Part shown: positions 24,591-64,000 of the stretch, one piece after another
Numbering within the stretch: position 1 is the stretch's first letter
How the letters are laid out: the number at the start of each line of letters is the position of its first letter
Assembly: GCA_965230555.1 (NCBI GenBank)
Contig: OZ246014.1
Coordinates: forward strand, 3,091,119 to 3,155,118
DNA: 64,000 nt
Source of the DNA: Croceivirga sp.
Lineage (GTDB): Bacteria > Bacteroidota > Bacteroidia > Flavobacteriales > Flavobacteriaceae
Direction of reading: 5' to 3'
Translations under genes and position numbers: made by a program
Notes under the pieces: generated by a model
Told to the model about the DNA's origin: nothing
Seen by the model: the letters and a program-made list of their open reading frames with translations, nothing else
The model's database searches: none

Positions 24591-27500
24591 ATGAAAGTAA
24601 AAAAAATGTCGAGGGCATTGATTGCAATTTTCAGTACAATTGCATTCGCATTCGCCCAAGAAAAGACGGTTACGGGTACCGTAATCGACCAATTTGGCAT
24701 TCCACTTCCTGGGGTGAACATCCTTGTTGAAGGAACAACAAATGGTACACAAACTGACTTTGATGGCAATTACACTATCAAAGCAAGCCAAGGCCAAGTC
24801 CTTGTCTTTACCTATTTAGGTCTAAAAACCACCAAACGGACTGTAGGTTCCGGGAACGTCATCAATGTTGCAATGGAAGAAGATGCCCAAGCTTTGGAAG
24901 AAGTTGTGGTAGTAGCTTACGGTAGCCAAAAAAGAGAGTCCATTACGGGATCCATCAGTATCATTGATGCCGAACAAATTGAGAACACTAGTTTCTCCAA
25001 TCCGGCCAAAAGCCTGGAAGGTTTGGTTTCCGGACTTCGGGTTATTCAAGCAGATGGGCAACCTGGTTCCGACCCTATAATCCGGATTAGAGGTTTCGGA
25101 TCTATAAACGCCTCTAGCGCCCCCCTAATCGTTCTAGATGGAGTGCCCTATTCTGGAGCCTTGAGCAGCATCAATCCGCAGGATATCGAATCCACCACTG
25201 TTTTAAAAGATGCCTCTTCCACATCACTATATGGCAACAAGGCCTCCAACGGTGTTTTAATGATCACCACAAAAAAAGGTGCCAAAAATAGAAAACCACA
25301 AATCACCATAGACACGAGATATGGTATTACACAGAGAGCTGCCAAAGAGTATGATATCATAGAAACCCCTAAAGAGTTTTATGAGTCCTACCACAGCGTA
25401 TTGGCCAACTCAGAGTTTCAAAGACAAAGCGCTGCTGGTACTCCCATAACTGTTGAAGAAGCCAGACAATTTGCCTCAAACAACTTAATTCCCAGCCTTG
25501 GTTACAATGTTTACAATGTCCCGGACGCAGAATTAATAGACCCCACTACCGGTAGACTTAACAGTGCCGCGGTTCTACAAGTCGATGATAAATGGGAAGA
25601 TGCCTTATTTAGGGATACGGCCTCCTTTAGCTCCACCAACCTTAATATTTCTGGCGGTTCAGAGAATATTGACTACTATTTCTCCTTGGGAACGGAAGAA
25701 AATAACGGGTATACGGTAAGAAGTAATTTCGAAAGACATACTGCCCGTCTAAAGGTCAATGCTTCCAATATTGCCAAAATATTCACCATAAGTGGAGATG
25801 TCTCCTATGCAAAGTCCAACAGTCAAGCAGTGCCAGCCACTATAAGTGTCAATGGCTTACCCACAACTAACTTTGCCAATGCTTTCTTTTGGACCAGAAG
25901 AATCGCCCCAATTTATCCAGTTTACCAGTATGATGAAAATTGGAACCCTATTTTAGACCCTAATAACCCAAGTGGTTTTGCTTATGACTTTGGCGTTCCT
26001 CAGATTTTTCCCAGTGGGGCAAGCAGGGGGCCCAGAAATTATGCCGTTGGAGAGCACCCCCTTGCCGTTATAGAAAACACTACCGAAACCAATGAAAGGG
26101 ACAATTTCAATGGTGCCTTTAGGGCAAAAGTAGACTTACCCTTAGGTTTTAAGTTCGAATATGTCATGAATTATTTGACCGAAGTGGACCAAGGCACCGA
26201 TTTCACAAAGCCGGGAGCTGGCGCTTTTGCCGCGGCCAATAATGGATTGTTGACCAATAACAGGGACAACTTCACCGCTTTTACCAATCAACAGTTATTG
26301 ACTTGGAAAAAAGATGACGGCACCCATAGTTTTGATGCCCTTTTAGGCCACGAAACCTACAAAGAGACCTTTACAACACTTGAACTTGAAAAAAGAAACA
26401 TAATCGGAAATTTCAGCCCCATATTGGACAACACCTCTGTATACTCCAGTGCGAGCAACTACAATTCCCAGTATAGGACTGAAGGTTATTTTTCTAGATT
26501 TATCTATGGCTACGATAACACTTATTATCTAAATCTAACGGGTAGATATGACGCCTCTTCCGTTTTTCATCCAGATGAACGTTGGGGAGCTTTTTGGTCT
26601 GCTGGGGCATCATGGATCTTAAGCAACGAGAGCTTTTTGGAAAACTCCAATACCATTGACTATGCCAAGCTATCTGCAAACTATGGTACCACGGGTAACG
26701 ATAGAATCCTCTATCCGGATACCCTGGGGAGAAACTACTTGGCCTATGAAAACCAATATGAAATAGGTGAGAGCAATGGTGAATTGACACAGACCCTTCG
26801 TTACCTGGGGGACAGGTCAATAACATGGGAAAAAGCAGCCAGTCTTGATGTTTCTTATGAAATGAGTCTATTCAACCAACTAAGCCTTTCCTTAGGATAC
26901 TATAGAAAGAAATCAGAAGACCTATTGTTCAACAACCCAATTGGACCATCCACAGGAAGAGGTTCCAGACCCCAAAATTTTGGATCTATGGTCAACAGTG
27001 GATTTGAAACCGAAGTAGCATGGAATGTCGTAAACAAGGAGAAAGTCAACATTAGTTTCAACGCCAACCTGTCTACCCTAAAAAATGAAATTACCGAACT
27101 CCCCAGGGACTCCATACAGTCTGGCAATTTTAGAAGGGTCGTTGGAAAAAGCATTTTTGACTACTTTATGGTCAGGTCGGCCGGTGTAAACCCTGACAAC
27201 GGAAATGCACAGTATTACGATATAGATGGCAACATTACAGAAGATTATGCCACTGCTGTAGCAGGAAGACAATTTCAAAATAAAACGGCTATCCCCGATG
27301 CGTTTGGTGGCTTTGGAACAAATATCCAAGTAGGAAAGTTTTCATTGGGACTACAATTCGCCTACCAGATAGGGGGATATGGGATTGACAACGAATACTT
27401 TGGACTATTGGGCGCAACCCAAAATGTGACCAACTTTCCCGATTACGATGAAACATGGACACTAGACAATCCCACGGCCAACTTGCCGAGGGTTGACCCC

Positions 27501-27776
27501 TTAAGCCCTGACCAGTATCGACTTTCAGATCTTTGGTTGGTGGATCTAAGCTATTTAAGCCTAAACAACATTAACCTCGGCTATGTTCTAGATCTTGATG
27601 TGTTAAAAAAATACCACATAGACAGTATTAGGTTCTATGCAACAATGAACAACGCATTCTTACTATATAGTGCCAGACAGGGATATGATCCTCGCCTCAA
27701 TTCAGTAGGCTCGTCATCAGCAGAATATGGCGCCAATAGAACAACCGCTTTTGGTGTGAAATTAAATCTAAATTAA
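24591..27776 (+). CDS. SusC/RagA-family TonB-dependent outer-membrane transporter
   Basis: 1061 aa; signal peptide, carboxypeptidase-regulatory-like domain (TVTGTVIDQFGIPLPGVNILVEGT), plug (PLIVLDGVPY...NGVLMITTKKG), C-terminal barrel. Confidence 0.95.
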   Translation: MKVKKMSRALIAIFSTIAFAFAQEKTVTGTVIDQFGIPLPGVNILVEGTTNGTQTDFDGNYTIKASQGQVLVFTYLGLKTTKRTVGSGNVINVAMEEDAQALEEVVVVAYGSQKRESITGSISIIDAEQIENTSFSNPAKSLEGLVSGLRVIQADGQPGSDPIIRIRGFGSINASSAPLIVLDGVPYSGALSSINPQDIESTTVLKDASSTSLYGNKASNGVLMITTKKGAKNRKPQITIDTRYGITQRAAKEYDIIETPKEFYESYHSVLANSEFQRQSAAGTPITVEEARQFASNNLIPSLGYNVYNVPDAELIDPTTGRLNSAAVLQVDDKWEDALFRDTASFSSTNLNISGGSENIDYYFSLGTEENNGYTVRSNFERHTARLKVNASNIAKIFTISGDVSYAKSNSQAVPATISVNGLPTTNFANAFFWTRRIAPIYPVYQYDENWNPILDPNNPSGFAYDFGVPQIFPSGASRGPRNYAVGEHPLAVIENTTETNERDNFNGAFRAKVDLPLGFKFEYVMNYLTEVDQGTDFTKPGAGAFAAANNGLLTNNRDNFTAFTNQQLLTWKKDDGTHSFDALLGHETYKETFTTLELEKRNIIGNFSPILDNTSVYSSASNYNSQYRTEGYFSRFIYGYDNTYYLNLTGRYDASSVFHPDERWGAFWSAGASWILSNESFLENSNTIDYAKLSANYGTTGNDRILYPDTLGRNYLAYENQYEIGESNGELTQTLRYLGDRSITWEKAASLDVSYEMSLFNQLSLSLGYYRKKSEDLLFNNPIGPSTGRGSRPQNFGSMVNSGFETEVAWNVVNKEKVNISFNANLSTLKNEITELPRDSIQSGNFRRVVGKSIFDYFMVRSAGVNPDNGNAQYYDIDGNITEDYATAVAGRQFQNKTAIPDAFGGFGTNIQVGKFSLGLQFAYQIGGYGIDNEYFGLLGATQNVTNFPDYDETWTLDNPTANLPRVDPLSPDQYRLSDLWLVDLSYLSLNNINLGYVLDLDVLKKYHIDSIRFYATMNNAFLLYSARQGYDPRLNSVGSSSAEYGANRTTAFGVKLNLN

Positions 27777-27786
27777 AAAATTGGTT

Positions 27787-29283
27787 ATGAAACAAGATAA
27801 ATTTACAAACAGGAGTATAGGCAACCATTTTGCCCTGTTCCTTGCAACGGTTCTTTTCATCTCTTGTTCGGATTTTGACAGAGACTTTGAAGATGAAAGA
27901 TATTTGAGCACCTCCCATGCCGAAGCAAATTCGGCAACAGGGAGCACCGTTGGTCTTCAAGCTCTGGATGGTGCCATCTTATCCTATTTTAGAGATGGGG
28001 AAAATGGAGCTGGCAGCACCGATGAGTTTGGTCTAAAGGCCGTACAACTTGGCATGGATCTGAGGAGTAACGATATGGACATGAGCAGAAATACTTGGTT
28101 CGGGGCATACAACAACTATGACAATGTTGTTTTAACATCCAATGACAATGATTATTTATGGGAGTTTTTCTACCGAATTATCAGTAACGCCAATAGTATT
28201 ATCAATACAATACCAGATGATGCACCAGAGGAAACATTGGTTTTTAAATACAAATCCCATGCATATAGAGGGATTGCTTACTTTTATCTCATAAGAATTT
28301 ACCAACACACAAGAGCTGATGACGCCACAAAAGCGATACCGATTGATTTTGGGGACTTTGTTGGAGAGCCCAAATCCACTGTCGGTGAGGTCAAAGCACA
28401 GATTCTCGATGATTTGACCATAGCTTTTAACGGTCTTGAAAACTATGGTAGAGCTTCTGTGGAAGAGGTTGACAGAAACGTGGCCGCTGCATTTTTAGCA
28501 AAATACCACCTAACTTATGAAAATTGGTCCGAGGCCGAAACCTATGCGGATATAGCCATGCGAGTGGGAAGCCTTAGCAGTGATGTCCTTCACGGCTTTG
28601 ATGAACTCTCTTTATCCGAAACGCTGTGGGGAGCTCAAGTGACAGAAGCCACTTCTGAGGTCTATGCCTCTTTCTTTTCCCACACAAGCCAGATCAATGA
28701 TGGGTATAGTGGTTGGAATCATTTTAAAACAGTAAATTCCAATCTATATGATATGATCCCGGCAACCGACAAAAGATTGGCCTGGTTCTCAGACCAGGAA
28801 TATGGGCCAGGAGAAATATTGGTTCCCGGCACTTGGGGGCACTATAACATTACCCCAAAGTACACCAGTTTAAAATTCATAGCGCAACCGGGACCCGGTG
28901 TGTTCATAGGGGATTATATCTACCTCAGGAATGCAGAGTTTTACCTGACCAAGGCAGAAGCTTTGGCCAGACAAAATAAAGATTCCGAAGCCCAACAAGT
29001 TTTATATGACCTAAACAGTGTTAGGGATGAAAGTTACACTTTATCAACCAATACGGGCCAAGACCTTATTGATGAAATTCTCATGTACAGAAGAATTGAG
29101 CTTTGGGGCGACGGTGTAGCTTCTTTTGACATGGCCAGACTTGGTGTTGGATTAAACAGGCAAGACGGCAGGGAGAATCTTGTCATGCCTGGGGCAGACC
29201 TTGTGATTCCTCCATTAGATGACAGAATGATCTATCAAATCCCAATTAGGGAGGTTGATGCCAATCCAAATCTTAACAATTAA
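27787..29283 (+). CDS. SusD/RagB-family nutrient-binding lipoprotein
   Basis: Lies immediately after susC. Lipobox FISCSD, TPR-like helices, C-terminal RRIELWGDG motif. Confidence 0.9.
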   Translation: MKQDKFTNRSIGNHFALFLATVLFISCSDFDRDFEDERYLSTSHAEANSATGSTVGLQALDGAILSYFRDGENGAGSTDEFGLKAVQLGMDLRSNDMDMSRNTWFGAYNNYDNVVLTSNDNDYLWEFFYRIISNANSIINTIPDDAPEETLVFKYKSHAYRGIAYFYLIRIYQHTRADDATKAIPIDFGDFVGEPKSTVGEVKAQILDDLTIAFNGLENYGRASVEEVDRNVAAAFLAKYHLTYENWSEAETYADIAMRVGSLSSDVLHGFDELSLSETLWGAQVTEATSEVYASFFSHTSQINDGYSGWNHFKTVNSNLYDMIPATDKRLAWFSDQEYGPGEILVPGTWGHYNITPKYTSLKFIAQPGPGVFIGDYIYLRNAEFYLTKAEALARQNKDSEAQQVLYDLNSVRDESYTLSTNTGQDLIDEILMYRRIELWGDGVASFDMARLGVGLNRQDGRENLVMPGADLVIPPLDDRMIYQIPIREVDANPNLNN

Positions 29284-37696: not shown

Positions 37697-38878
37697 TCAA
37701 GAATAGACGAAGTTTCCGTATTCGCTGTTGATGGTCAGCTTTTTGGAATCTGAAGTTTCCACCCTGCCCACAATCTGGGCATCTACATCAAAGCTTTGGG
37801 AAATGGCTATCAAATCTTCGGCAATGGCACTGTCCACATACATTTCCAATCGATGGCCACAGTTAAAGACCTGGTACATTTCCTTCCAATCCGTACCGGA
37901 TTGTTCCTGTATCAATTGGAACAAGGGCGGAATGGGAAACAGATTGTCCTTTATAATATGAAGGCCCTCTACAAAGTGTAATATCTTGGTCTGTGCCCCC
38001 CCACTGCAATGCACCATACCATGTAGGTGTTCCGAAGAATAGGTTGAAAGGATTTTCTTTACAATGGGCGCATAGGTACGCGTGGGTGACAAAACCAATT
38101 TACCGGCATCCAAAGGAGAACCTTCTACGGAATCCGACAATTTTTTACCTCCGGAATACACCAACTCCTTGGGCACGGCAGGGTCAAAGCTCTCTGGATA
38201 GCTATCTGCCAGATACTTGGCAAAGACATCATGCCGGGCAGAGGTTAATCCGTTGCTGCCCATACCTCCGTTGTACTCCGTTTCATAAGTCGCCTGCCCA
38301 TAGGAAGCCAAGCCCACAATGACATCCCCAGCCTTAATGTTGGCATTGTCTATGACATTGCTTCGTTTCATCCGTGCGGTCACGGTAGAATCTACAATGA
38401 TCGTTCGGACCAAATCGCCCACGTCGGCCGTTTCTCCGCCCGTAGAATGAATGGTAATCCCATGCTGCTTTAAATCGGCAATCAGTTCTTCGGTGCCATT
38501 GATGATGGCCGAGATTACCTCACCCGGTACCAAGTTCTTGTTGCGGCCAATGGTTGAGGACAGCATGATGTTATCCGTGGCCCCCACACAGATCAAATCA
38601 TCAATGTTCATGATCAGGGCATCTTGGGCAATGCCCTTCCAAACGCCCAGATTCCCCGTCTCTTTCCAATACATATAGGCCAAGGAGGATTTGGTACCGG
38701 CTCCATCGGCATGCATGACCAGACAGTGGTCTTCACTGCCCGTAAGGTAATCCGGCACTATTTTACAGAACGCCTTGGGGAACAACCCCTTATCGATGTT
38801 CTTGATGGCATTGTGCACATCTTCCTTTGAGGCCGAAACCCCCCGTTGGGCATATCGTTTGCTCGAATCTGAGGACAT
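37697..38878 (-). CDS. purM: Phosphoribosylformylglycinamidine cyclo-ligase (AIR synthase, long Bacteroidetes type)
   Basis: 393 aa; RGVSASKEDVH, HADGAGTKS, DDLICVGA, GGETAD blocks. Confidence 0.75.
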   Translation of the reverse strand: MSSDSSKRYAQRGVSASKEDVHNAIKNIDKGLFPKAFCKIVPDYLTGSEDHCLVMHADGAGTKSSLAYMYWKETGNLGVWKGIAQDALIMNIDDLICVGATDNIMLSSTIGRNKNLVPGEVISAIINGTEELIADLKQHGITIHSTGGETADVGDLVRTIIVDSTVTARMKRSNVIDNANIKAGDVIVGLASYGQATYETEYNGGMGSNGLTSARHDVFAKYLADSYPESFDPAVPKELVYSGGKKLSDSVEGSPLDAGKLVLSPTRTYAPIVKKILSTYSSEHLHGMVHCSGGAQTKILHFVEGLHIIKDNLFPIPPLFQLIQEQSGTDWKEMYQVFNCGHRLEMYVDSAIAEDLIAISQSFDVDAQIVGRVETSDSKKLTINSEYGNFVYS

Positions 38879-39784: not shown

Positions 39785-41311
39785 CTATTCCCAGTAAGGC
39801 ATAAAAGCCCCCGTAAATAAAATCTCAGAAAAAACAGAATCATCGTCCCTAATTTGTGTGCGTTGAACAATCCTCTCTGAGATATCATCATTTGAAGTCC
39901 TTACATAGATCACATAACCATCATTGGGTGCATATTTGGGATCCAAATCGTTTTGGCCAGTTGGTTTTTCTGTATCCAACTCCTTTGATTCGCCTGTTAG
40001 GAAATCGTACTGAAAAATTCGGTTGTCCAACCTCCTGTATTCTTCATTTTCTACGCCAGATACATCCCTTGAGTATAAAAGCCGATTTCCATCCAATGAA
40101 AAATCCAACCCATCAAAAGCACCTGCCACACCTTCAATCAAAACCTGTTCTCCAACACCAGTTTCTGGATTGACAATTCGAATTCGCACATTGTACCCCT
40201 CTACATCATTTGTCTTTAGTGCCAATAAACCCGATACCGGGTTTACCGCAACCTCAGAAATAAATTCACCACTTGGCGTTTCATAGACCAACCTATTGGC
40301 AGAACCATCAAGACTAATTTCATACAACCTATTAAAATTGGGATAGAAAATTTTGTTTCCTTGCTTATTCCAAGCAAATTCAATTTCATCCAATTTAAAT
40401 CCAGCGATTTGAGTAGATTTTGTCAGTTGTTGCTTATTGGTCCCATCAAAACCCATCAGGAAAATATGGGATTCACTGCCATCAAACCCTATATAGGCAA
40501 TCTTATTTGCCGTATTGTTGGCCTTTGGCCTAAATGAATTTTTATTGTTTTCCGTTAATTGTACAACATTTTGGTTTATATCTTCTTCCAACGGCCCCAG
40601 TGGTTCATTGCCCGAAAAAACGGCCTGATTATCATTGGTGCTTTTTACAAAAAAATAACGGTTGTCACTTACCCCTTGAACCGTAAAGCTTGAAAGTTCA
40701 CTCAATACCGTGGCATTCACACCATCATCTGCGGTAATTTGCCAAAAATATGTTTTGCCTATCTCCAAAGCGCTTACGGTAAAAGTCGTATCTGGAATCT
40801 CTTGAAAAAACTGCGTCGCTCCTTGTTCCCCTTGTCTTAATTCTAGCGCATACTCAATTTCGTCATCATCATTTTTTGCCGAGGTCCATAAAAATGCAGG
40901 AGATCTTTCCACCCCCAAAGCCCCATCTTCTGGAAAAAGTAAGATTGGCCGTTTTGGCAAGAGATTATCTGCTTCCAAACTGTCCAATTCTATAACAACA
41001 CTCACCGTATTCCCTTCTAAGATGTTCGCCGGTTCAAACGCTGTTTTATACTCCTTCTGCTCGGCTTGTACCGAATATTCCCCAACACTTATTTCATCAA
41101 TACTAAAATCCCCATTCACATCGGTAAAAACAGTGGTTGAGGCAGGGTTGGTGGTAATCTTTACATTTTCTATCGGGGTGTTCAACCCTTTGGATACCAC
41201 CTTGCCTTCTAATTTTCCAGTTTCCAAATCACCAATTGTTTCCTCCTCGCATGAAACTGACCATATAACAATAAAGGCCAATACCAATTTGTAGATCTCT
41301 TTAAAATGCAT
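39785..41311 (-). CDS. Lipoprotein with a carboxypeptidase-regulatory-like domain, an Ig/FN3-like domain and a TolB-like beta-propeller; last gene of the curli-type operon
   Basis: Lipobox WSVSC; GKVVSKGLNTPIENVKITT...TDVNGDFSI; W-x-x...TYFWQITADD module; C-terminal PD40-like repeats. 11-nt overlap with csgG. Confidence 0.6.
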   Translation of the reverse strand: MHFKEIYKLVLAFIVIWSVSCEEETIGDLETGKLEGKVVSKGLNTPIENVKITTNPASTTVFTDVNGDFSIDEISVGEYSVQAEQKEYKTAFEPANILEGNTVSVVIELDSLEADNLLPKRPILLFPEDGALGVERSPAFLWTSAKNDDDEIEYALELRQGEQGATQFFQEIPDTTFTVSALEIGKTYFWQITADDGVNATVLSELSSFTVQGVSDNRYFFVKSTNDNQAVFSGNEPLGPLEEDINQNVVQLTENNKNSFRPKANNTANKIAYIGFDGSESHIFLMGFDGTNKQQLTKSTQIAGFKLDEIEFAWNKQGNKIFYPNFNRLYEISLDGSANRLVYETPSGEFISEVAVNPVSGLLALKTNDVEGYNVRIRIVNPETGVGEQVLIEGVAGAFDGLDFSLDGNRLLYSRDVSGVENEEYRRLDNRIFQYDFLTGESKELDTEKPTGQNDLDPKYAPNDGYVIYVRTSNDDISERIVQRTQIRDDDSVFSEILFTGAFMPYWE

Positions 41312-42707
41312 TTTTTGGTCTATATTTAGTTATACTTTTTCCTAGTTTTATTTCAAGGCCCAGGCCAAAATTGTAATAAAAATCATCTCTTTTGCCATTG
41401 ACCACATTATCTACAGCATCACTTGTTGTAATGTTGTTCTCGGCAAAAACAGTGAGAAACGTTTTCTTTCCGACCCTATATTTTAAGCCGAGGCCGTACT
41501 GCAGGTTTATTCCGGATGTAGATTCACTTAAGCCCGGTTCTTCAGATCTAATGTCTGCCAGCCATCCTGCCCCTACATACACCGTTGGGGAAATCCTTTC
41601 ATAAGGCAACATGTGGTACTTTAACTGAACATTCCCAGCCATATACTCCTTATAAAAACCATTGCCAGAAGTAAAATAATGGTAATCCCCAACAATGCCG
41701 GCACTCCAATAAGGTGAAACAAATTTTTGATACCCCAATCTAAATCCAGCCCCCATACTTTTATCTGAAAAATCTCCATTGAACAGTGGTGAAGATAAAA
41801 ATGCGGTAACGCTCTTGGGGTGGTATTCATAATTCTGGTTCCTATTGAACAATAGCCTTGATTCTTCCTCGGCTTTGTTGGCCCTATACATTTCAACCAA
41901 AGTCTCGTCTAGCCGTCCGCCCTCTTTGGATTCCCATAGCCCTCCTTCTATTCCTTCAATGATCAATGCCTCTACCGCATTCTCAATGGCGCTTTGTATG
42001 GCCAACTGAATAGGCTCGTTCTTGGTAATTCCTGTTTCCACTTCCAACAATCGTTGAAAATTCACATACCGAAACAAACTCGCATCCAGCGCCTGCGACA
42101 ATATAGTTTTGGAAACGTATACGGTCTTTAAAATCTTACCATTTGAGGTGGATACCGCACGCAGGTATATGGTAATACGGTCTTGACGGTATTGGGTAGA
42201 TCCCCCTACCCCAAAATACCTTGCCCCATACCCCCCGGTAATTATATTTGAATCGTATGATATGATCCCCCCTTCCAAGAGTATTCCGGCAAAAAGTAAG
42301 GGCGGCAAATTGGGCTGTCCTTTTTGTGCCCCTTCATATTCTGTCCTTGTGGATCGTATGATGTTTCTTTCATTGAGGAGATTGGAAAGATTTTCGCGTT
42401 CTATGGGCGTAAACCATTTACTGTCCTCCAAAGCTTTGATCAACATGGTTGTTGCCCCTTGGGGAACGGCCGTGCTAAATGTGCTGCCGTTTTCTACATT
42501 CTTGTATTGTCCCGTTTGATCCTTAAAATTATAGACCCCCACCACAACGGGCTCTTTAGGTTCGGGCAAGCTTCGTAAAGATTTGGTGAAGGGTGTTGTT
42601 TCTCCCGTGCGTGGTGGCATAACGGTTGTTGGCTGGTTAAAATACGTTCCACAACTACCACACAATGCTACACTTACAAGCAAAAGCGCTTTTTTAAGAT
42701 ACTTCAT
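41301..42707 (-). CDS. csgG: Curli secretion channel CsgG homolog with a C-terminal ~200-aa beta-barrel extension
   Basis: Lipobox LCGSC. VGVYNFKDQTGQYK, STAVPQGATTMLIKALEDSKWF, LSNLLNERNIIR, GGYGARYFGVGGSTQYRQD and GITKNEPIQLAIQSAIE match E. coli CsgG blocks by eye. Confidence 0.85.
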   Translation of the reverse strand: MKYLKKALLLVSVALCGSCGTYFNQPTTVMPPRTGETTPFTKSLRSLPEPKEPVVVGVYNFKDQTGQYKNVENGSTFSTAVPQGATTMLIKALEDSKWFTPIERENLSNLLNERNIIRSTRTEYEGAQKGQPNLPPLLFAGILLEGGIISYDSNIITGGYGARYFGVGGSTQYRQDRITIYLRAVSTSNGKILKTVYVSKTILSQALDASLFRYVNFQRLLEVETGITKNEPIQLAIQSAIENAVEALIIEGIEGGLWESKEGGRLDETLVEMYRANKAEEESRLLFNRNQNYEYHPKSVTAFLSSPLFNGDFSDKSMGAGFRLGYQKFVSPYWSAGIVGDYHYFTSGNGFYKEYMAGNVQLKYHMLPYERISPTVYVGAGWLADIRSEEPGLSESTSGINLQYGLGLKYRVGKKTFLTVFAENNITTSDAVDNVVNGKRDDFYYNFGLGLEIKLGKSITKYRPKNAF

Positions 42708-42727
42708 TAAGTTATGATTAAGGGCAA

Positions 42728-43123
42728 TTAATTGGGTATGATGATCTGGGTCTGTTCTCCTGTACCCGTATCAAGAATGTTTACCACCAAACCCTCTGAT
42801 GACTCAAAAATCTCCAACAACAATTCCCCAACAGTGAATGTACCGGGCTCAAGTGCTTCGCCCAGTTGGGAATCAAAGACCGAACGGGTAAGGCGGCCCA
42901 ATACCTGGCGGTTTAGGCTTTCCTGAAACTCCTCCAATTCTGAGCGCTCGTTGTTAAAAGAACTGCTCTCTTGAAATGAATTTTGGGCATTGGCAGAACT
43001 CAACAACCACTGGTAGTTAAAGGTATTGCCACCAAAGTTTGGGTTCTTTGGACTATATACCAATTGTTGCCCATAGCTAAGGGAACAGCAACATAAAAAA
43101 GAAAAAAGAAGGATCGCTTTCAT
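42728..43123 (-). CDS. csgF: Curli assembly protein CsgF homolog
   Basis: 131 aa, signal peptide. YSPKNPNFGGNTFNYQWLLSSANAQN compares with E. coli [26 protein letters not shown]. Confidence 0.8.
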   Translation of the reverse strand: MKAILLFSFLCCCSLSYGQQLVYSPKNPNFGGNTFNYQWLLSSANAQNSFQESSSFNNERSELEEFQESLNRQVLGRLTRSVFDSQLGEALEPGTFTVGELLLEIFESSEGLVVNILDTGTGEQTQIIIPN

Positions 43124-43126
43124 AGG

Positions 43127-43888
43127 TTAGTATTTAATTAAATCTTGTTGAACGGCCCTATTCTGTCTAAAATAATAGTTTAACCTAGATACAGAATTCA
43201 TGGCCATGTCCTTTAAATAAGTGGCTCTCGGATTCACAAAAAATTGACTTACCAAATCGTTGCCGGCAAAAATCTTGATCATGGTATTGCCCCCAATGGC
43301 AAGCTCTTCGGATATTTTTACAATTTTTTCCCCATTTATGTTCTGTGCATTGTACTCCAGAAAGAAGTACTGATAAAAATCCCTTCCGGGTTTTGTCTTG
43401 GTATCTTCCACAACCACCCCCTGCATTAAGTTGACTTCGTTTTGGGTAGCCTTACTGATATTTTGTTGGTTTTGCCTCTTCACAGATGGCAGTGTACCAT
43501 CTTCCCCATCCATTCCATTGATCACTATACGGTCTTTGCCAATGGGTTTTCCTTCATCATAAACGAGCAAAAAGACAATAATTCGTTGATTGTCCTTGGG
43601 TATGATTTTAGCACTTGTGAGATTAATTTTCTCGTTGGGTTTTAAAACAAAAAAGTCTTTATGTTCAAACTTTTCTTCGGCTAGATTGGCCGTAGCCTTT
43701 TTAATGATCTTGGATTCATAATCCAAACTCTTGTCTATCTGCGTTTTGTTGAAGGCAGAAAAAAAAATTTCATACACCTCTCCTTGGACCTTAACATCTA
43801 TTTTGGCCTCTATATCTGCATTGAATATCTGGGCCAACACCAAGAACGGACACATTAAAAAAAATAATGGCACAACGCTTTTGAACAC
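43127..43888 (-). CDS. csgE: CsgE-domain protein with an extra ~140-aa N-terminal domain
   Basis: C-terminal GVVVEDTKTKPGRDFYQYFF...IKIFAGNDLVSQFFV compares with E. coli CsgE GLLTDHTVSSIGHDFYRAF...ITVNQDVIFQTFL. Signal peptide present. Confidence 0.65.
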   Translation of the reverse strand: MFKSVVPLFFLMCPFLVLAQIFNADIEAKIDVKVQGEVYEIFFSAFNKTQIDKSLDYESKIIKKATANLAEEKFEHKDFFVLKPNEKINLTSAKIIPKDNQRIIVFLLVYDEGKPIGKDRIVINGMDGEDGTLPSVKRQNQQNISKATQNEVNLMQGVVVEDTKTKPGRDFYQYFFLEYNAQNINGEKIVKISEELAIGGNTMIKIFAGNDLVSQFFVNPRATYLKDMAMNSVSRLNYYFRQNRAVQQDLIKY

Positions 43889-43903
43889 AAGACAACCTAT
43901 TGC

Positions 43904-44413
43904 TTAGTTGGTATTTCTAATGATAACGGACTGTGAGCCGGTCATTTGTATCTTCATCTTATCTATAAGGCCATTTTGCCCATGGATCACCAAATTTTGA
44001 CCATCACCTATTTGTTCTATATCCCTTTGCAGCAGTTCCTTGTTGGCAACCGTATTAAACTCCAAGAGATAATTATTATTTCCATTTTGCAGCACAGCGT
44101 AATCTATACGGTCTGCACTCAGGGTTAAGTCTATACGGTTGGCATTGCCCCGTTGGTCCAGCACAATTCCGTTGTTACTGCCAAACGTCCTTAAATCTAC
44201 CCTGTTGCCATCACCTACCTGCTTAATAAAAGCACCTGGGGTAGCTACCGTCAAATCTAAATCGGCTTGTTCCACCAGTGTGTAATCAAGCAAATTCACT
44301 TGGGGCGGTTCCACCGCTTCCCCACTTGCTTCTTCGTTTGTTATGATGCCTTGGGCATGTACCACAGCGACAAAGAGAAAATGTAGCAGGCCTACAAAAA
44401 ATAACTGTTTCAT
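43904..44413 (-). CDS. Minor curlin-repeat subunit (CsgB-like candidate nucleator)
   Basis: Signal peptide from MKQLFF. 4-5 units of Q-x-G-x-x-N (IKQVGDGNRVDL, LDQRGNANRIDL, VLQNGNNNYLLE, IEQIGDGQNLVI). Confidence 0.6.
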   Translation of the reverse strand: MKQLFFVGLLHFLFVAVVHAQGIITNEEASGEAVEPPQVNLLDYTLVEQADLDLTVATPGAFIKQVGDGNRVDLRTFGSNNGIVLDQRGNANRIDLTLSADRIDYAVLQNGNNNYLLEFNTVANKELLQRDIEQIGDGQNLVIHGQNGLIDKMKIQMTGSQSVIIRNTN

Positions 44414-44488
44414 ATCCAAATTAAACATTGTTAAGGGTGCAGAAAGAGAAAGTTTTTCCACACCCCTTACAATTAATTACTGATTGTT

Positions 44489-45652
44489 TTATTGTCTTGT
44501 CTGTACAACGGTTGCCGTGGTCATACTATCAGCCGCAGTTTGGGTAACGGTACTTATGTTCCCATCTCCATTCTGTGTAACAGAAATCATTGCATCGGTT
44601 GTTCCCATTTGGGTTGCAATGCTACTATTGCTATTACCATTACGTTGCAAAACCTTTATGGTACTGTTTACAGTTGAAAGATCTTGTTTGGCAGTACTGC
44701 TATTGCCAGTACCATTGCGCTGATCAATATCCATATCATTATCTACACCTGCTTGAACTGTACTGGAGTAGTTACCATCCCCATCTTGGTCCACAAAGAT
44801 TTCATTGCCCACGCCACTTTGCTCTGCATAGGATTCGTTATAGACGTTACTGTTGCCTTTTTGGGTGATTTTAATGGCATTAGACTCTCCAGATTGCAAA
44901 ACGTCAGAATCGTTGGAATCCATATCTTGATCAACAGCAATGGTATTTCCAAATCCTGTTTGTTCAATATCTGAAATGTTATCAGTACCATTTTGGTTAA
45001 CAAAAGCTTCACTATTTTGTGTCACAAGACTTCCTCCATATTGGTTTACATCTGATATGTTTCGCTTGCCTACTTGATCTATATCAATAAGGCCATTAGA
45101 TCCAGTTTGGTTGACAGTTGAACTGTTCTCTCCAGGACCATTGTTTACACCGGATTGGGTTACATAAACCTTATTTTTAGACCAACTCTGCCAAACTCTT
45201 GAAAAGTTCTTGTCATCGTTTTGTCTAACCTCGGTTAAATTTTCAGTGCCTCCTTGTACATCAATTTCAGAAATATTCTCATCACCCTGTTGGACTACTT
45301 TAGATGTATTTGAATTACCTCCTTGTCTAACAAGAGAATTATTCAACATACCTTCTTGGTTTACATCAACAACAACACCATTCCCTGCTCCATTGGCGTT
45401 GCCAAAAATATTTCCTTGTGAAACAGTTGATATATTGCCAACCCCGTCTTGTTGCACCTTTGAGGAGGTAGCAACCCCAGATCTTTCAGTAACTTTAAGT
45501 TGTTCAAGATTGGATGTGTTAAGATTCCCTTTTTGAATGACCGTTGCCGACGTACTAGCCGTCGCATCTGTTTGCGTTACTGTACTCTCATTTTGAGCGA
45601 ACATAAAAGACCCCATTGCAAGTGCCATTGCACTCATGATAATTTTTCTCAT
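44489..45652 (-). CDS. Major curlin-repeat subunit (CsgA-like, about 20 repeats)
   Basis: Signal peptide MRKIIMSAMALAMGSFMFAQ, then about 20 units such as VQQDGVGNISTVSQ, VRQGGNSNTSKVVQ, VNQTGSNGLIDIDQ, VTQNGDGNISTVTQ. First gene of the operon. Confidence 0.7.
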   Translation of the reverse strand: MRKIIMSAMALAMGSFMFAQNESTVTQTDATASTSATVIQKGNLNTSNLEQLKVTERSGVATSSKVQQDGVGNISTVSQGNIFGNANGAGNGVVVDVNQEGMLNNSLVRQGGNSNTSKVVQQGDENISEIDVQGGTENLTEVRQNDDKNFSRVWQSWSKNKVYVTQSGVNNGPGENSSTVNQTGSNGLIDIDQVGKRNISDVNQYGGSLVTQNSEAFVNQNGTDNISDIEQTGFGNTIAVDQDMDSNDSDVLQSGESNAIKITQKGNSNVYNESYAEQSGVGNEIFVDQDGDGNYSSTVQAGVDNDMDIDQRNGTGNSSTAKQDLSTVNSTIKVLQRNGNSNSSIATQMGTTDAMISVTQNGDGNISTVTQTAADSMTTATVVQTRQ

Positions 45653-45832
45653 AATAATAGAATTTTTAGAAGTTTTAGAATTAAAGGTTAAAAAATATGT
45701 ATTAGCCAATATGGCCAGTATACGTACTTATTACCCATAAACTAAAAGGGGGGATAGGTTAGCTCTACATGTGCCTATTGGGGTTTGGCACATTTCTACA
45801 ACATAATCACTCTAAAACTAGAATCTTTTTGC

Positions 45833-45870
45833 AAAAGAAAAAAAAACACAAATACCCATTTTTGGGTATT
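45833..45870 (-). terminator. Terminator-like hairpin upstream of the curli operon (insulates it from yjdM read-through)
   Basis: AATACCCA-TTTT-TGGGTATT; on the minus strand it is followed by TGTG and a T9 run. Confidence 0.55.
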
Positions 45871-46070
45871 GACTTTTTGAAGAATTCATTATACATCGAT
45901 AAAAGGCATATTTTACCGTTAAACCATTCGATTTTATCGACAAAATACATTGTTAAATCTATGTAAATAAGGGGCTTGGCTCCCGTTCATCTATATTACT
46001 GGCAGATGGTCGATTGTCCAACCCGTCCTTGTTTCCAATTTTTCAAATGTATATTACCCTAAATGACTGA

Positions 46071-46115
46071 TATTTTGAGGTTTGGTTCAGCACTATGAAA
46101 CTCAAGGAGCTTTAG
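46071..46115 (+). pseudogene. Right copy of the 45-bp direct repeat: orphan 3' fragment of a DUF1080 gene (YFEVWFSTMKLKEL*)
   Basis: TATTTTGAGGTTTGGTTCAGCACTATGAAACTCAAGGAGCTTTAG. Similarity to 39704-39748 starts abruptly, with an in-frame TGA immediately upstream. It ends 1 nt from the yjdM stop. Confidence 0.85.
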
Positions 46116-46116
46116 C

Positions 46117-48236: not shown

Positions 48237-50423
48237 TTATTTTACAAAAAGTAGTTCCCGGTACTTGGTCAAGGGCCAATGGTCATCGGCAATCAAATTC
48301 TCCAAGGCATCGGCATGATCCCTGATTTTTTCAAAATACGGTTTTATGGTATCGCAATAGGTTTTGGCCTTTTTGGCCACTGTCGCCATATTGTCGGCCC
48401 TTTGTTTGGCATCGAGCATGGCATCGGTCATTTTTTTCATTTCGGCCATATGCTGGGCAATCTGCTCCAAAATGTTCAGTTGGGGCTCGGTAAAGTTTTT
48501 ATGGGCCGCTCCGTAGACTTCCTTCATGCCTTGGATGTTCTGTAGCAACACATTCTGATAACCGATCGCGGCCGGCAAAACATGGTTATAGACCAATTCC
48601 CCCAGGATACGGCCTTCAATCTGAATGTTGAAGACGTAATTATCCAATTCCACACCCTGATGCGCCTTCAGTTCCACTTCACTCATCACGTTTGTTGCTG
48701 CAAACAGATCGGCACTCTCCTTTGAGGTCAATACCTGAAGGGCTTCTGGAGTGTTCTTGTTGTTGCTCAACTTTCGCCTTCTGGCCTCTTCCTGCCAATC
48801 AAAACTGTAGCCATCACCGTCAAAACGGATTCGTTTTGAGGTTTTGATATACTCCCGAAGGACATTAAAGACCGCCTCGTCCTTCTTCAGGTTCTTCTTG
48901 TCGATCAAGGTATCCACTTCCTTTTTAAAATCCATCAACTGCTTGGCCACAACGGTATTGAGGATGGTCATAGGCTTGGCACAGTTCATCTTGGCTCCTA
49001 CCCCACGGATCTCAAATTTATTACCGGTAAAGGCAAAGGGCGAGGTTCGGTTCCTATCGGTATTGTCCAATAATATTTCTGGAATTTTACCTACTACATT
49101 GAGTTTCAATTCTGTCTTCTCCTGAGGGGAAAGCTTTCCTTTGGAAACGCCCTCCAATTCATCCAGCACATCGCCCAACTGCTGCCCGATAAAAACAGAG
49201 ATAATGGCCGGTGGCGCCTCTTGTCCGCCCAAACGATGGTCATTACTGGCCGAAGCGATCGAAGCGCGCATCAATTCCTCATAGGTATCCACCGCTTTAA
49301 TAGTGTTCACAAAAAAGGTCAAAAACTGTAGGTTTTTCATCGGGGTCTTCCCCGGACTCAACAAATTGGTTCCCGTATCGGTAGCCAAGGACCAGTTGTT
49401 GTGCTTGCCCGAACCATTGATGCCCTGAAAAGGCTTTTCGTGAAAGAGCACCTTAAATCCGTGTTGGTCGGCAATGTCTTCCATCACATCCATCAACAGC
49501 AGGTTGTGGTCCACGGCCAAATTGGCTTCTTCATGGACCGGGGCCAATTCAAACTGGTTCGGAGCCACCTCGTTATGCCGTGTCTTAACCGGAATGCCCA
49601 ACAACATGCACTGTTTCTCCAACTCACTCATAAAGGCCAACACCCGGGAAGGAATGACCCCAAAATAATGATCGTCCAATTGTTGTCCCTTGGCCGGTGC
49701 CTTGCCCACCAGGGTTCTCCCCGTCATCAATAAATCTGGTCTGGACTGAGCCAAGGCCTTGTCCACCAAAAAATATTCCTGTTCCCACCCCAAAGTGGCA
49801 TATACCTTGCGTACATTCTTATCAAAATATTGTGAGACTCCTGTTGCCGCCTCATCCACAGCATGCAAAGCCCTTAAAAGTGGGGCCTTGTTGTCCAGGG
49901 CATCGCCCCGGTAGGACACAAAAATGGTCGGGATGCAAAGGGTCGTCTTGTAAATAAATGCCGGTGAAGTGGGATCCCATGCCGTGTACCCCCTTGCTTC
50001 AAAGGTGTTGCGAATGCCCCCGCTCGGAAAACTGGAGGCATCGGGTTCTTGCTGCACCAATTGGGCGCCCTCAAATTTTTCGATGGAACGTCCATCGTCC
50101 ATCAAATCAAAAAAGGCATCGTGCTTTTCTGCGGTGGCCCCCGTCAAAGGCTGAAACCAATGCGTGTAATGTGTGGCCCCCAAGGATAGTGCCCAAGCCT
50201 TCATCCCCTCGGCAACCTGATCGGCAATCTTACGGTCTATTTTGCTCCCCGCAAAAATAGCGGCCTGCACCTTGTCATAGGCATCCTTGGACAGGAATTG
50301 CAGCATCTTGTCTTGGTTGAAGACATTTCTTCCGAAAATTGACGATCGTTTTTCCCGTTCCTCAATACTTTTTGAACCTCTTTTGTGAATATCTGCCAAT
50401 GTGGCCAAGCGTACGTTTTGCAT
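48237..50423 (-). CDS. glnN: Glutamine synthetase type III
   Basis: 728 aa, a length and block pattern (HYTHWFQP, GWEQEYF, HNEVAPNQFE, NGSGKHNNWS) typical of GSIII. Confidence 0.9.
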   Translation of the reverse strand: MQNVRLATLADIHKRGSKSIEEREKRSSIFGRNVFNQDKMLQFLSKDAYDKVQAAIFAGSKIDRKIADQVAEGMKAWALSLGATHYTHWFQPLTGATAEKHDAFFDLMDDGRSIEKFEGAQLVQQEPDASSFPSGGIRNTFEARGYTAWDPTSPAFIYKTTLCIPTIFVSYRGDALDNKAPLLRALHAVDEAATGVSQYFDKNVRKVYATLGWEQEYFLVDKALAQSRPDLLMTGRTLVGKAPAKGQQLDDHYFGVIPSRVLAFMSELEKQCMLLGIPVKTRHNEVAPNQFELAPVHEEANLAVDHNLLLMDVMEDIADQHGFKVLFHEKPFQGINGSGKHNNWSLATDTGTNLLSPGKTPMKNLQFLTFFVNTIKAVDTYEELMRASIASASNDHRLGGQEAPPAIISVFIGQQLGDVLDELEGVSKGKLSPQEKTELKLNVVGKIPEILLDNTDRNRTSPFAFTGNKFEIRGVGAKMNCAKPMTILNTVVAKQLMDFKKEVDTLIDKKNLKKDEAVFNVLREYIKTSKRIRFDGDGYSFDWQEEARRRKLSNNKNTPEALQVLTSKESADLFAATNVMSEVELKAHQGVELDNYVFNIQIEGRILGELVYNHVLPAAIGYQNVLLQNIQGMKEVYGAAHKNFTEPQLNILEQIAQHMAEMKKMTDAMLDAKQRADNMATVAKKAKTYCDTIKPYFEKIRDHADALENLIADDHWPLTKYRELLFVK

Positions 50424-56881: not shown

Positions 56882-57907
56882 TTATAGCGAATCCCGAAGT
56901 ATGAGTTTGGAAGGGTTTCTGATTACCTCTACCTGTTTATTCAATACCATGGAAGCGGCATTTCTGCCCATTTTCTCAAAGTCGGTACTAAAAACGGAAA
57001 TTCCTCCTTCCAGTACTTCATTCACATAAGTGTCGTTATAGGACAACACCCCTATATCCTCTCCAAAAGTATAGTTCTTTTTCCTGCTTAACTTTATGAG
57101 GTTCACGAGCTCTTTTCCGCTGGATGACATGAGCAAGTATACCCATCCCTTGGTCAGGTTCTGTTCAGAAACCTCACTCACAATATCATACTTGAACCTG
57201 TTCTTATCGCAGAACCGCTCAAACCCGTTGATGACCTTTTTTCCCTCATATCTGGACTCTGCGCACACCAAGACCAACTTATCGTATTTTTTTAACCTTC
57301 CGTAGGCCTCAACCAAACAATTGTAGATATCATCCTCAAAGTCTTGGTATACCATGGCATAATTGCCGGTCAGGTTTGGTTCATAATGGTCCAAGATCAA
57401 CCGCTTTTCTGGCGGTATCATGTTAAGGATATCATCCACTTCTTCGTGCAAATAGGTGACGACCACAAAATGGGTATAATTGGTGAGATTGTCCAAAATC
57501 ATGGTTTTGAACAAATTGTAATTGTGGTGGTAAAAATACAGATGGACCTCTCCACGATCGCCAATGGTATCCAAAAAGGAACGGTACATCCGGTTTTTAA
57601 AAACCGTCATTTTATCCATGAGTAGGAAAATGCGCAAGCCAACCTTGACATTGGTCTTTTTGACAAAATACCCTTTACGGTACGAAGATTCTATAATACC
57701 CTGCTCGCTCAGGTAATTTAGGGCTTTTAATACCGTTTCCCTGCTTAAATTAAATTCATCGGACAATTTGTTCACAGAAGGAATGCGATCGTTTACCGCA
57801 AATTTCCCTTCCTCTATTTGGGAGATGACAAGCTCGGCAAGTTTTTGGTATTTTGGTTTTAGATGGTTTCCGTTCCTGTTTAAATTTGACATAAGTATCC
57901 TTTTCAA
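56882..57907 (-). CDS. GntR-type wHTH fused to a LacI/PBP1-type sugar-binding domain (transcriptional regulator)
   Basis: N-terminal KYQKLAELVISQIEEGKF...IPSVNKLSDEFNLSRETVLKALNYL; C-terminal periplasmic-binding-protein-like fold. TTG start. Confidence 0.75.
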   Translation of the reverse strand: MKRILMSNLNRNGNHLKPKYQKLAELVISQIEEGKFAVNDRIPSVNKLSDEFNLSRETVLKALNYLSEQGIIESSYRKGYFVKKTNVKVGLRIFLLMDKMTVFKNRMYRSFLDTIGDRGEVHLYFYHHNYNLFKTMILDNLTNYTHFVVVTYLHEEVDDILNMIPPEKRLILDHYEPNLTGNYAMVYQDFEDDIYNCLVEAYGRLKKYDKLVLVCAESRYEGKKVINGFERFCDKNRFKYDIVSEVSEQNLTKGWVYLLMSSSGKELVNLIKLSRKKNYTFGEDIGVLSYNDTYVNEVLEGGISVFSTDFEKMGRNAASMVLNKQVEVIRNPSKLILRDSL

Positions 57908-63751: not shown

Positions 63752-63773
63752 TTTTTCACTTTTAGTTACTTGT

Positions 63774-64000
63774 TTAGAATGAGGCATTTACGCCCAATGT
63801 ATATACCGAAACCTGCGGATAATAGTCGGCATTGCCCAAAGGTGCTTCAGGGTCATACCCTTCCATATCATCAAAGGAAAGGACGTTTTGTCCTGTCACA
63901 AACAATCGCAAACTTTGCAAAAAGGTCTTTTCCATGACTTTCCTTGGAAAATCATAGGACAAACTAACATTCTTTAATTTTAGGAATGAGGCATCGGTCA
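63774..64000 (-). CDS. SusC-family TonB-dependent transporter, C-terminal end (continues beyond the window)
   Basis: The reading frame is open to the window edge and ends ...YYPQVSVYTLGVNASF (typical SusC terminus). It lies immediately upstream of susD. Confidence 0.8.
   Translation of the reverse strand, partial: TDASFLKLKNVSLSYDFPRKVMEKTFLQSLRLFVTGQNVLSFDDMEGYDPEAPLGNADYYPQVSVYTLGVNASF

Follow-up and report, generated by a model that had tools for sequence, protein, structure and literature searches.

The DNA analysed here, referred to as the window, is a stretch of 64,000 nucleotides (nt) from Croceivirga sp. (contig OZ246014.1 of assembly GCA_965230555.1). The subject of this report is a curli-type (type VIII secretion) cluster made up of six open reading frames (ORFs) on the minus strand at positions 39785-45652. 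A preliminary description of the window had placed six genes on one strand in this region, and all six were confirmed at its coordinates on the minus strand. Every peptide string that it quoted was also found in the translations. Lengths are in amino acids (aa).

44489-45652, minus strand: csgA-like gene for the major subunit, 387 aa from an ATG
43904-44461, minus strand: csgB-like ORF in its longest form, 185 aa from a GTG
43904-44413, minus strand: csgB-like ORF with its preferred start, 169 aa from the ATG at 44413 (MKQLFF...)
43127-43888, minus strand: fused csgC/H-like and csgE gene, 253 aa
42728-43123, minus strand: csgF, 131 aa
41301-42707, minus strand: csgG with a barrel, 468 aa
39785-41311, minus strand: gene X, a lipoprotein, 508 aa

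From csgA to X the intergenic gaps are 27, 15, 3, 20 and -11 nt when the csgB-like ORF is read from the GTG, which agrees with the gaps of 3-27 nt or overlaps described earlier. However, the ATG at 44413 aligns with the start and the signal peptide of 29 orthologues. Judged from this alignment, the csgB-like ORF most likely starts there, and the gap between csgA and csgB is then 75 nt rather than 27 nt. With gaps of -11 to 75 nt on the same strand, csgA-csgB-csgE-csgF-csgG-X would be encoded as one transcription unit. N-terminal signal peptides are seen in sequence and profiles on 6 of the 6 products, and lipoprotein boxes on CsgG and X. Because all six carry signal peptides, they are expected to leave the cytoplasm via Sec. 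The cluster was compared with related loci, for which one genome per species was scanned; the set used consists of the best 80 of at least 567 such loci.

The Csg profile hidden Markov models (HMMs) match the locus with E-values that span 1e-9 to 1e-66, and the 468-, 131- and 253-aa proteins are matched by the CsgG, CsgF and CsgE profiles, respectively. The assignment of the genes as A, B, E, F and G followed by a TolB-like lipoprotein proved correct by Pfam and NCBIfam, a family profile and Foldseek. CsgF matches PF10614 at 6.9e-36 over the full length of the profile (positions 5-132 of 132) and NCBIfam CsgF at 1.4e-12. It keeps the N-terminal channel-binding segment NPNFGGN...LLSSANAQN, and its median identity across loci is 58%. 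CsgG matches PF03783 at 1.5e-66 on aa 47-261, and the alignment of its residues 6-276 with the solved structure of CsgG from E. coli runs from one end to the other (E 3e-68). The NCBIfam CsgG model matches aa 6-277 at 1.2e-72 with 245 bits, which is below a cut-off for equivalogs that is tuned to E. coli. The 253-aa protein matches CsgE PF10627 at 4.9e-9 (36.8 bits against a cut-off of 25), where aa 155-246 correspond to positions 1-92 of the 105 in the profile, and NCBIfam CsgE at 8.4e-5. Both CsgG and CsgE are longer than these matches, and their domains are laid out as follows.

43130-43426, minus strand: CsgE domain proper, aa 155-253, by PF10627 and NCBIfam CsgE
43514-43828, minus strand: CsgC/CsgH-fold domain, aa 21-125 of the CsgE protein, by Foldseek on an AlphaFold2 model
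41853-42707, minus strand: CsgG core, aa 1-285, a lipoprotein with PF03783
41304-41840, minus strand: outer-membrane beta-barrel domain fused to CsgG, aa 290-468, by PF13505 OMP_b-brl

CsgG and HfaB form one family, several of the 120 best CsgG database matches are named 'CsgG/HfaB family protein' by NCBI, and NCBIfam HfaB matches the window protein at 7.1e-9. These facts could be taken to mean that the locus encodes an anchor of the holdfast type, like HfaA/HfaB/HfaD, and not curli. The HfaB match, however, covers aa 177-249 only and reaches 35 bits against a cut-off of 300, compared with the 245 bits of the CsgG model, and the genes for CsgE, CsgF and curlin repeats are all present. The holdfast anchor was rejected on the HMM scores and is considered hardly credible.

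The 387-aa CsgA-like protein has a Sec signal peptide, MRKIIMSAMALAMGSFMFA, followed by QNE. Curlin_rpt (PF07012, Pfam) matches it in 8 stretches at 4.9e-25, and the NCBIfam models for CsgB and CsgA match it at ~8e-27 and ~8e-26, both under their equivalog cut-offs. The protein contains ~29 Q-delimited strand-turn motifs of 11 residues, equal to ~14-15 curlin repeats, and the autocorrelation of its residues has maxima at lags 11 and 22. Its isoelectric point is 4.1 and it has no cysteines. Both subunits had been described as being made of Q-x-G-x-x-N units. This is true of the CsgA-like protein, in which the strict unit Q-x-G-x-x-N-x-(S/A)-x-(V/I)-x-Q occurs 12 times, but not of the CsgB-like protein, in which it does not occur. 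No further curlin genes were found elsewhere in the 64-kb window. Among the 80 loci, CsgA-like proteins longer than 200 aa measure 225-1041 aa and are present in 1-4 copies per locus. Thermobacterium salinum and Luteirhabdus pelagi (loci L057 and L060) have 1041-aa CsgA-like genes beside a copy of 433 aa.

Large repeat adhesins of Flavobacteriaceae are mainly secreted through the type IX secretion system (T9SS). The repeat proteins could then be adhesins secreted by T9SS, and the CsgG-like lipoprotein could have some other purpose. A faint resemblance of the CsgG barrel to PorG, a T9SS component, in NCBIfam (1.8e-4) would fit this explanation, but the score of 21 bits is far under the cut-off of 130. 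C-terminal sorting domains of T9SS (TIGR04183 or Por_Secre_tail), which the preliminary description had named as a sign that the repeat proteins are secreted by another route, are absent from both the CsgA-like and the CsgB-like protein in searches of Pfam and NCBIfam at E<=0.1. The full complement of CsgE and CsgF partners is also strictly co-located with the subunit genes. The T9SS route was likewise rejected on HMM scores, and it is very improbable.

The CsgB-like gene is single-copy, encodes ~170 aa, lies directly upstream of csgE and was detected in 70 of the 80 loci. Its product is a degenerate curlin with four repeats, in which Q65-G67, Q87-G89-N92, Q109-G111 and Q134-G136 are invariant. 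Curlin_rpt is matched by 12 of 30 orthologues, and a profile of the 30 orthologues finds the curlin 8c50 (6.7e-11) and E. coli CsgA 8enq (1.6e-7) in the PDB. By these profiles the CsgB-like protein is recognisable as a curlin at the level of the family only. Its C-terminal tail is conserved as well, with the pattern K-(M/L)-K-I-x-M-x-G-x-x-Q-S-x-I-I-R-N-F-N in the aligned family; for the window protein it is given as K-M-K-I-x-M-x-G-x-Q-S-V-I-I-R-N-T-N. Because the CsgB-like protein is single-copy and constant while the CsgA-like protein varies in copy number and length, a division into nucleator and major subunit would be expected.

The curlin repeats also bear on whether the product is amyloid. 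It could be argued that a machinery homologous to that of curli exports a soluble or surface-bound beta-solenoid adhesin which does not form cross-beta fibres. Compared with E. coli CsgA, the subunit is much longer and its repeats are more degenerate, the wide variation in subunit copies (1-4) and length (225-1041 aa) is typical of adhesins, and no amyloid assay of any flavobacterial protein was found in the literature searched. However, the periodicity of the repeats and the positions of the Q/N/G ladder are those of curlin, and the Bacteroidetes CsgA R15.5 with ~15 repeats (8c50), which is the best match of the CsgB-like profile, has been solved as a curlin. A nucleator-like curlin, CsgF and a CsgC/H-like domain make sense mainly with a subunit that is prone to aggregation. 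A non-amyloid product is considered unlikely.

The AlphaFold2 model of the CsgE protein has a mean predicted local distance difference test score (pLDDT) of 79.7, with ~85-94 in the N-terminal domain and less than 50 in the linker. In this model a disordered linker (aa 126-155) joins a seven-stranded sandwich (aa 26-123), which comes after the signal peptide, to the CsgE domain. When the N-terminal domain was compared with the whole PDB by Foldseek, the best match was CsgH 2n59 (E 2.9e-6, template modelling (TM) score 0.66) and the second-best was CsgC 2xsk (E 5.5e-6, TM 0.81, root-mean-square deviation 2.6 Å over 95 aa). With these as its top two fold matches, the modelled N-terminal domain is a CsgC/CsgH-fold domain. 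The window copy has no match at E<=1 to the Pfam families for CsgC (PF10610) and CsgH (PF21112). Among 20 orthologous N-terminal domains, Tafi-CsgC PF10610 is matched by 7 (best 2.7e-6) and CsgH PF21112 by 1. The absence of a separate csgC had been remarked on, and there is no such gene at the locus. However, this statement is misleading because a CsgC/CsgH-fold domain is fused to CsgE, and the structural model suggests that the anti-amyloid chaperone is probably present in fused form.

The fusion is common among the relatives. CsgE orthologues from 79 loci have a median length of 259 aa, and a phmmer search with the N-terminal domain in 1.84 billion representative proteins returned 67 clusters, mostly of ~255 aa and fused to CsgE. 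The CsgE proteins of Olleya and Lutibacter (384-398 aa; P0313, P0322, P0323, P0332 and P0360; loci L075 and L079) have two CsgC/H-like domains in tandem. BLAST with the window domain gives two matches in each of them, at ~aa 8-144 and 153-265. In addition, ~8 clusters of 127-141 aa with a signal peptide and Lys-rich tails appear to be free-standing, secreted CsgC/H-like proteins of Bacteroidota. Short homologues of the domain include P0379, P0393, P0395, P0403, P0404 and P0423, several of which have weak Pfam matches to Tafi-CsgC or CsgH. Because the domain is duplicated in tandem in Olleya and Lutibacter and because apparently free-standing versions exist, it acts as a module.

The C-terminal part of CsgG matches OMP_b-brl PF13505 at 8.5e-6 within the whole protein (aa 306-451) and at 4.7e-8 when the domain is searched alone (33.8 bits against a cut-off of 28.7). 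All 13 of the 13 orthologous barrel domains examined match this family, the best at 3.9e-11. The C-terminus is predicted to be an OmpA-like barrel, for which the number of eight strands is also a prediction. The barrel is fused to CsgG in all of the ~80 loci. The fusion is also seen in the 120 best matches from the database, which are ~460-470 aa long and all from Flavobacteriaceae. NCBI/ENA already holds a CsgG identical to that of the window. By CsgG identity the nearest named relatives are Robiginitalea sediminis (70%) and Maribacter thermophilus (69%). The lipobox cysteine of CsgG, Cys19, is invariant in 14 sequences and is followed by G-T-Y-F-N-Q, with no acidic export motif; CsgG is predicted to be anchored facing the periplasm.

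Wherever a locus reaches far enough, csgG is immediately followed by gene X; in the window the two genes share 11 nt at the end of csgG. The protein is ~499 aa across loci. It matches PF13620 CarboxypepD_reg (4e-10) and PF13715 (5e-9), and the AlphaFold2 model (pLDDT 86.8) consists of a CarboxypepD_reg sandwich (aa 31-109), a domain like fibronectin type III (fn3; aa 124-211) and a propeller (aa 219-507). The propeller is six-bladed and TolB-like. Its best cellular Foldseek matches are TolB (4pwz, 2hqs and others), with E of ~1e-12 to 1e-11 and a TM score, normalised to the target, of ~0.55. X was rejected as an orthologue of TolB, as TIGR02800 matches aa 248-302 only, at 21.6 bits against a cut-off of 343.

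The lipobox cysteine of X, Cys21, is followed by E-E-E. In 27 of 27 sequences Cys21 and Glu23 do not vary and are followed by an acidic residue; nearly all of ~72 full-length orthologues have C-[S/N/Q/E]-E-[D/E]. Lauber et al. (PMC5080379) described the lipoprotein export signal of Bacteroidetes as a polar residue followed by acidic residues at +3/+4, with SDDFE as the consensus for F. johnsoniae and SDDDD as that for B. fragilis. A SusD-like lipoprotein encoded in the window, with the mature N-terminus C-S-D-F-D-R-D-F-E-D, serves as a positive control for this signal within the genome, and the start of CsgG, C-G-T-Y-F-N-Q, serves as a negative control. Because the acidic motif after its lipobox matches the export signal, X is predicted to be exposed on the surface.

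The order csgA (1-4 copies)-csgB-csgE (~259 aa)-csgF-csgG (~469 aa)-X on one strand is seen in 80 of the 80 loci wherever the contig allows. The loci all belong to Flavobacteriaceae, except for a few metagenome bins that are loosely or wrongly labelled, and the genera include Maribacter, Robiginitalea, Myroides, Leeuwenhoekiella, Salegentibacter, Aequorivita and Olleya. The chromosomal address is also kept. In the window the operon lies between genes for a type III glutamine synthetase (48237-50423) and a protein related to aminoimidazole ribonucleotide (AIR) synthase (37697-38878). The former gene is within reach in 41 of the 80 loci and the latter in 54 of the 80. A conserved chromosomal position points to long vertical inheritance under selection, and recent horizontal acquisition was rejected, as the flanking genes are conserved across many genera. 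Judged from this synteny, the operon is an old, vertically inherited trait that is ordinary for Flavobacteriaceae.

The preliminary description had considered the architecture of the locus unusual. This view does not stand, as the three extended proteins are the family standard in 80 of the 80 loci and a single unidirectional unit lacking csgC and csgD is the published norm outside Enterobacteria. The extra domains in three components, which it had also listed, are indeed present, but they too are standard in the 80 loci.

Some related loci differ in detail. Flavobacteriaceae bacterium RhTr2 (L071) has two curli operons in tandem on the same strand: csgA-E-F-G-X, in which no CsgB-like gene was detected, is directly followed by csgA-csgA-csgB-csgE-csgF-csgG. 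Two bins labelled 'uncultured Alteromonas sp.' (L017) and 'Alteromonadaceae bacterium' (L055) have an operon of the Flavobacteriaceae type, with the fused CsgG and gene X. Their contigs are probably mis-binned.

The genes that flank the operon encode PhnA/YjdM, EthD, a pyridoxal phosphate enzyme, glutamine synthetase III, a 3-keto-disaccharide hydrolase, an AIRS-like protein and a Rieske protein. Between phnA/yjdM and csgA there is an unusually long non-coding stretch of ~460 nt (45653-46116). It contains trivial small ORFs only and none that is credible, it has no Rfam match at E<=1, and an exact TAnnTTTG was not seen on reading the upstream sequence. A consensus scan placed one feature in this stretch.

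45851-45870, minus strand: terminator-like hairpin, AATACCCAAAAATGGGTATT then a T run

The hairpin lies ~200 nt upstream of the csgA start and 247 nt past the phnA stop, and it probably delimits the transcription unit on its upstream side. Terminator-like sites occur in the scan at background (8 against 6.9 in shuffled sequence). The GC content is 0.36-0.40 over csgE, csgB, csgA and the upstream spacer (43000-46000), compared with 0.43-0.49 in the flanks. Given the conserved synteny, this dip may reflect the N/S/T/Q-rich proteins that are encoded rather than a foreign origin. Regulators found in the window by Pfam are of the AraC type (22133-23638) and the GntR type (56882-57907). The window also contains typical polysaccharide-utilisation loci: a SusC-like TonB-dependent receptor with a SusD-like lipoprotein at 24591-29283, and a second gene of the SusD family at 62072-63787.

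Taken together, the locus is read as the Flavobacteriaceae form of the curli pathway (type VIII secretion, nucleation-precipitation), to which a probability of roughly 0.8 is given. The parts list of five Csg families, signal peptides and lipoboxes is read directly from sequence and profiles, and the steps of the pathway are carried over from E. coli by homology.

A number of observations weigh against this reading. The CsgB-like protein on its own is under the Pfam threshold (Curlin_rpt 17.8 bits against a cut-off of 20.7, E 0.0033), and only its position, size and conservation point to it as a candidate nucleator. The best sequence matches of the N-terminal domain profile of CsgE in the PDB are CsgC 2y2t and 2xsk, with marginal E-values of 0.05-0.07. 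The domain is cysteine-free in the window copy and in all 20 orthologues, so that the CxC of CsgC and the Cys pair of CsgH are missing. It is also not basic, unlike E. coli CsgC; its net charge is 0 in the window and -8 to +9 in the orthologues. No solved relative of the CsgG barrel was found in the PDB by sequence, either with the single sequence or with a profile. It is the motif after its lipobox that points to X being, most likely, flipped onto the cell surface. A regulator of the CsgD/LuxR type is neither adjacent to the operon nor among the other window ORFs scanned with Pfam, in agreement with the preliminary description, and a sigma-70 consensus scan of the upstream sequence gave 17 sites against 16.9 in shuffled sequence, with no excess and no recognisable promoter. 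Lastly, the amyloid character, fibre formation and expression of the flavobacterial system are all properties that we infer.

The properties of the N-terminal domain have consequences for how it is classified. Because it is cysteine-free, it counts neither as a CsgC nor as a CsgH when judged by the disulphides that Taylor et al. use as a criterion. If it is a member of the CsgC/CsgH family, its sequence would make it a third, cysteine-free subtype. A mechanism based on a basic patch is unsupported by the net charge, and the published electrostatic mechanism of inhibition may not transfer because the domain lacks a basic charge.

The regulatory findings lead to another explanation, that of an intact but cryptic locus which is expressed seldom or not at all and matters little for the biology of the organism. 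Neither a csgD-like nor any other regulator is adjacent, there is no convincing promoter, and in the open-access literature searched no flavobacterial Csg proteins were found in proteomic or transcriptomic data; one CsgG detection in the plastisphere is from Marinomonas. However, six intact ORFs are present, and their order and domain architecture are kept in at least 80 species, often at the same site. Decay is not expected given this intactness and conservation, and a cryptic locus is judged to be quite improbable.

If the locus encodes a curli pathway, its steps can be proposed by analogy with E. coli. After export of all six products by Sec, CsgG would oligomerise into an outer-membrane channel. 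The N-terminus of CsgF (NPNFGGN...) would enter this channel and display the CsgB-like curlin on the cell surface. The CsgE domain would cap the periplasmic side and feed unfolded subunits to the channel. The acidic CsgA-like subunit would leave unfolded and be templated by the CsgB-like protein into an extracellular beta-solenoid amyloid fibre. Three further steps are suggested by domain identity only. The CsgC/H-fold domain on its ~30-residue linker probably blocks nucleation in the periplasm at the hand-over to the channel. An OmpA-like barrel on each CsgG protomer may give a ring of satellite barrels round the channel. If X sits on the surface, its propeller may assist or anchor the fibre or the secretion complex from outside the cell. 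Cells would use the fibres to attach and aggregate, for instance on algae or marine particles.

It has been considered whether a cysteine-free CsgC/H domain tethered to CsgE, a CsgG channel ringed by satellite barrels and an obligatory surface X jointly define a distinct subtype of type VIII secretion. This is put forward tentatively, at somewhat under even odds. The CsgE-fused chaperone-like domain, the CsgG barrel and gene X are conserved across the family and appear to be undescribed in the open-access curli literature searched.

The curli cluster of the window is complete. Clusters of this kind occur in hundreds of genomes of marine Flavobacteriaceae, and computer surveys have listed them since 2012. 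What remains of interest are the three features that are conserved and apparently undescribed, above all the CsgC/H-like domain on CsgE. This fusion changes the statement that csgC is absent to one that a csgC-like function is probably fused, and it bears on how a chaperone of the CsgC type passes subunits to CsgE and CsgG, since chaperone-like domain and CsgE are one polypeptide here. The CsgG barrel bears on what stabilises or positions the CsgG channel in an outer membrane that is not proteobacterial, and gene X bears on whether CsgF and CsgB suffice to anchor the fibre. Flavobacteriaceae rank among the main colonisers of algae and marine particles, and a conserved amyloid-fibre system could aid their attachment and aggregation. 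Flavobacterium johnsoniae UW101 is a genetically tractable model. Since it has an operon listed in a table of PMC3521004, the questions raised by the architecture are directly testable.

The survey of Dueholm 2012 (PMC3521004) reported all Bacteroidetes genera to lack csgC and csgD, and also showed single-operon arrangements of csg genes in other groups. The prediction of csg homologs in Bacteroidetes attributed to this survey is borne out by its Table S1, which includes Flavobacterium johnsoniae UW101, Gillisia limnaea, Krokinobacter sp. 4H-3-7-5 and Flavobacteriaceae bacterium 3519-10. In the same table YP_003095823 of Flavobacteriaceae bacterium 3519-10 is entered under both CsgC and CsgE. 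This double listing is consistent with an unremarked trace of the CsgC/H-CsgE fusion. Taylor 2016 (PMC4838910) found systems outside the gamma-proteobacteria to lack csgC and csgD, described the CxC of CsgC and the distant Cys pair of CsgH, and mentioned CsgH-like subfamilies in Bacteroidetes with no fusion. Sleutel et al. 2023 analysed the Pontibacter korlensis CsgA R15.5 (PDB 8c50, ~15 repeats) and modelled the CsgA of Sediminicola sp. YIK13 with AlphaFold2. A 2025 review describes curli operons as widespread in Bacteroidota. As the preliminary description had supposed, no experimental study of any flavobacterial curli system was found in the open-access literature searched.

The operon of the window resembles the curli systems of E. 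coli and Salmonella in that CsgA- and CsgB-type subunits, CsgE, CsgF and CsgG are all present. It differs from them in being one unidirectional unit that lacks CsgD, whereas csgBAC and csgDEFG of E. coli and Salmonella are two divergent operons. The CsgC/H fold is fused to CsgE, CsgG has an outer-membrane protein barrel of ~180 aa, and X makes a sixth gene. The major subunit has ~15 repeats and not the 5 of E. coli, and it lacks a Gly-rich leader like N22. The Bacteroidetes operons of Dueholm 2012 are of the same lineage, with consecutive csgA/B-E-F-G and neither csgC nor csgD, and the window adds one more member to them; PMC3521004 gives no account of the sixth gene, of the CsgG barrel or of the CsgE extension as a CsgC-like domain. 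In csgBAEFG of Alteromonas and Pseudoalteromonas (Gammaproteobacteria) the subunit and secretion genes also form one unidirectional operon. However, these bacteria keep a divergent csgD, and neither fused domains nor a sixth gene are reported there. The six-bladed C-terminal propeller of X is structurally closest to that of TolB of the Tol-Pal system (E ~1e-12). In contrast to TolB, X lacks the TolB N-terminal domain, is a lipoprotein with a motif like that for surface export, has CarboxypepD_reg and fn3-like domains, and sits in a curli operon and not in a tol-pal cluster.

The anti-amyloid chaperones CsgC of E. coli (2xsk/2y2t) and CsgH of Rhodopseudomonas palustris (2n59) share their seven-stranded fold with the N-terminal domain of the window CsgE, and like it they are periplasmic and linked to curli. 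The window domain differs from both in being fused to CsgE, cysteine-free and not basic. Pontibacter korlensis belongs to Cytophagales, a different order from that of Flavobacteriaceae. Its R15.5 (8c50) is, like the window subunit, a Bacteroidetes curlin with many repeats, and it is the best solved match of the CsgB-like profile. The repeats of R15.5 are very regular and centrosymmetric, whereas the window subunit is degenerate with insertions and is nearer to the class of Sediminicola sp. YIK13.

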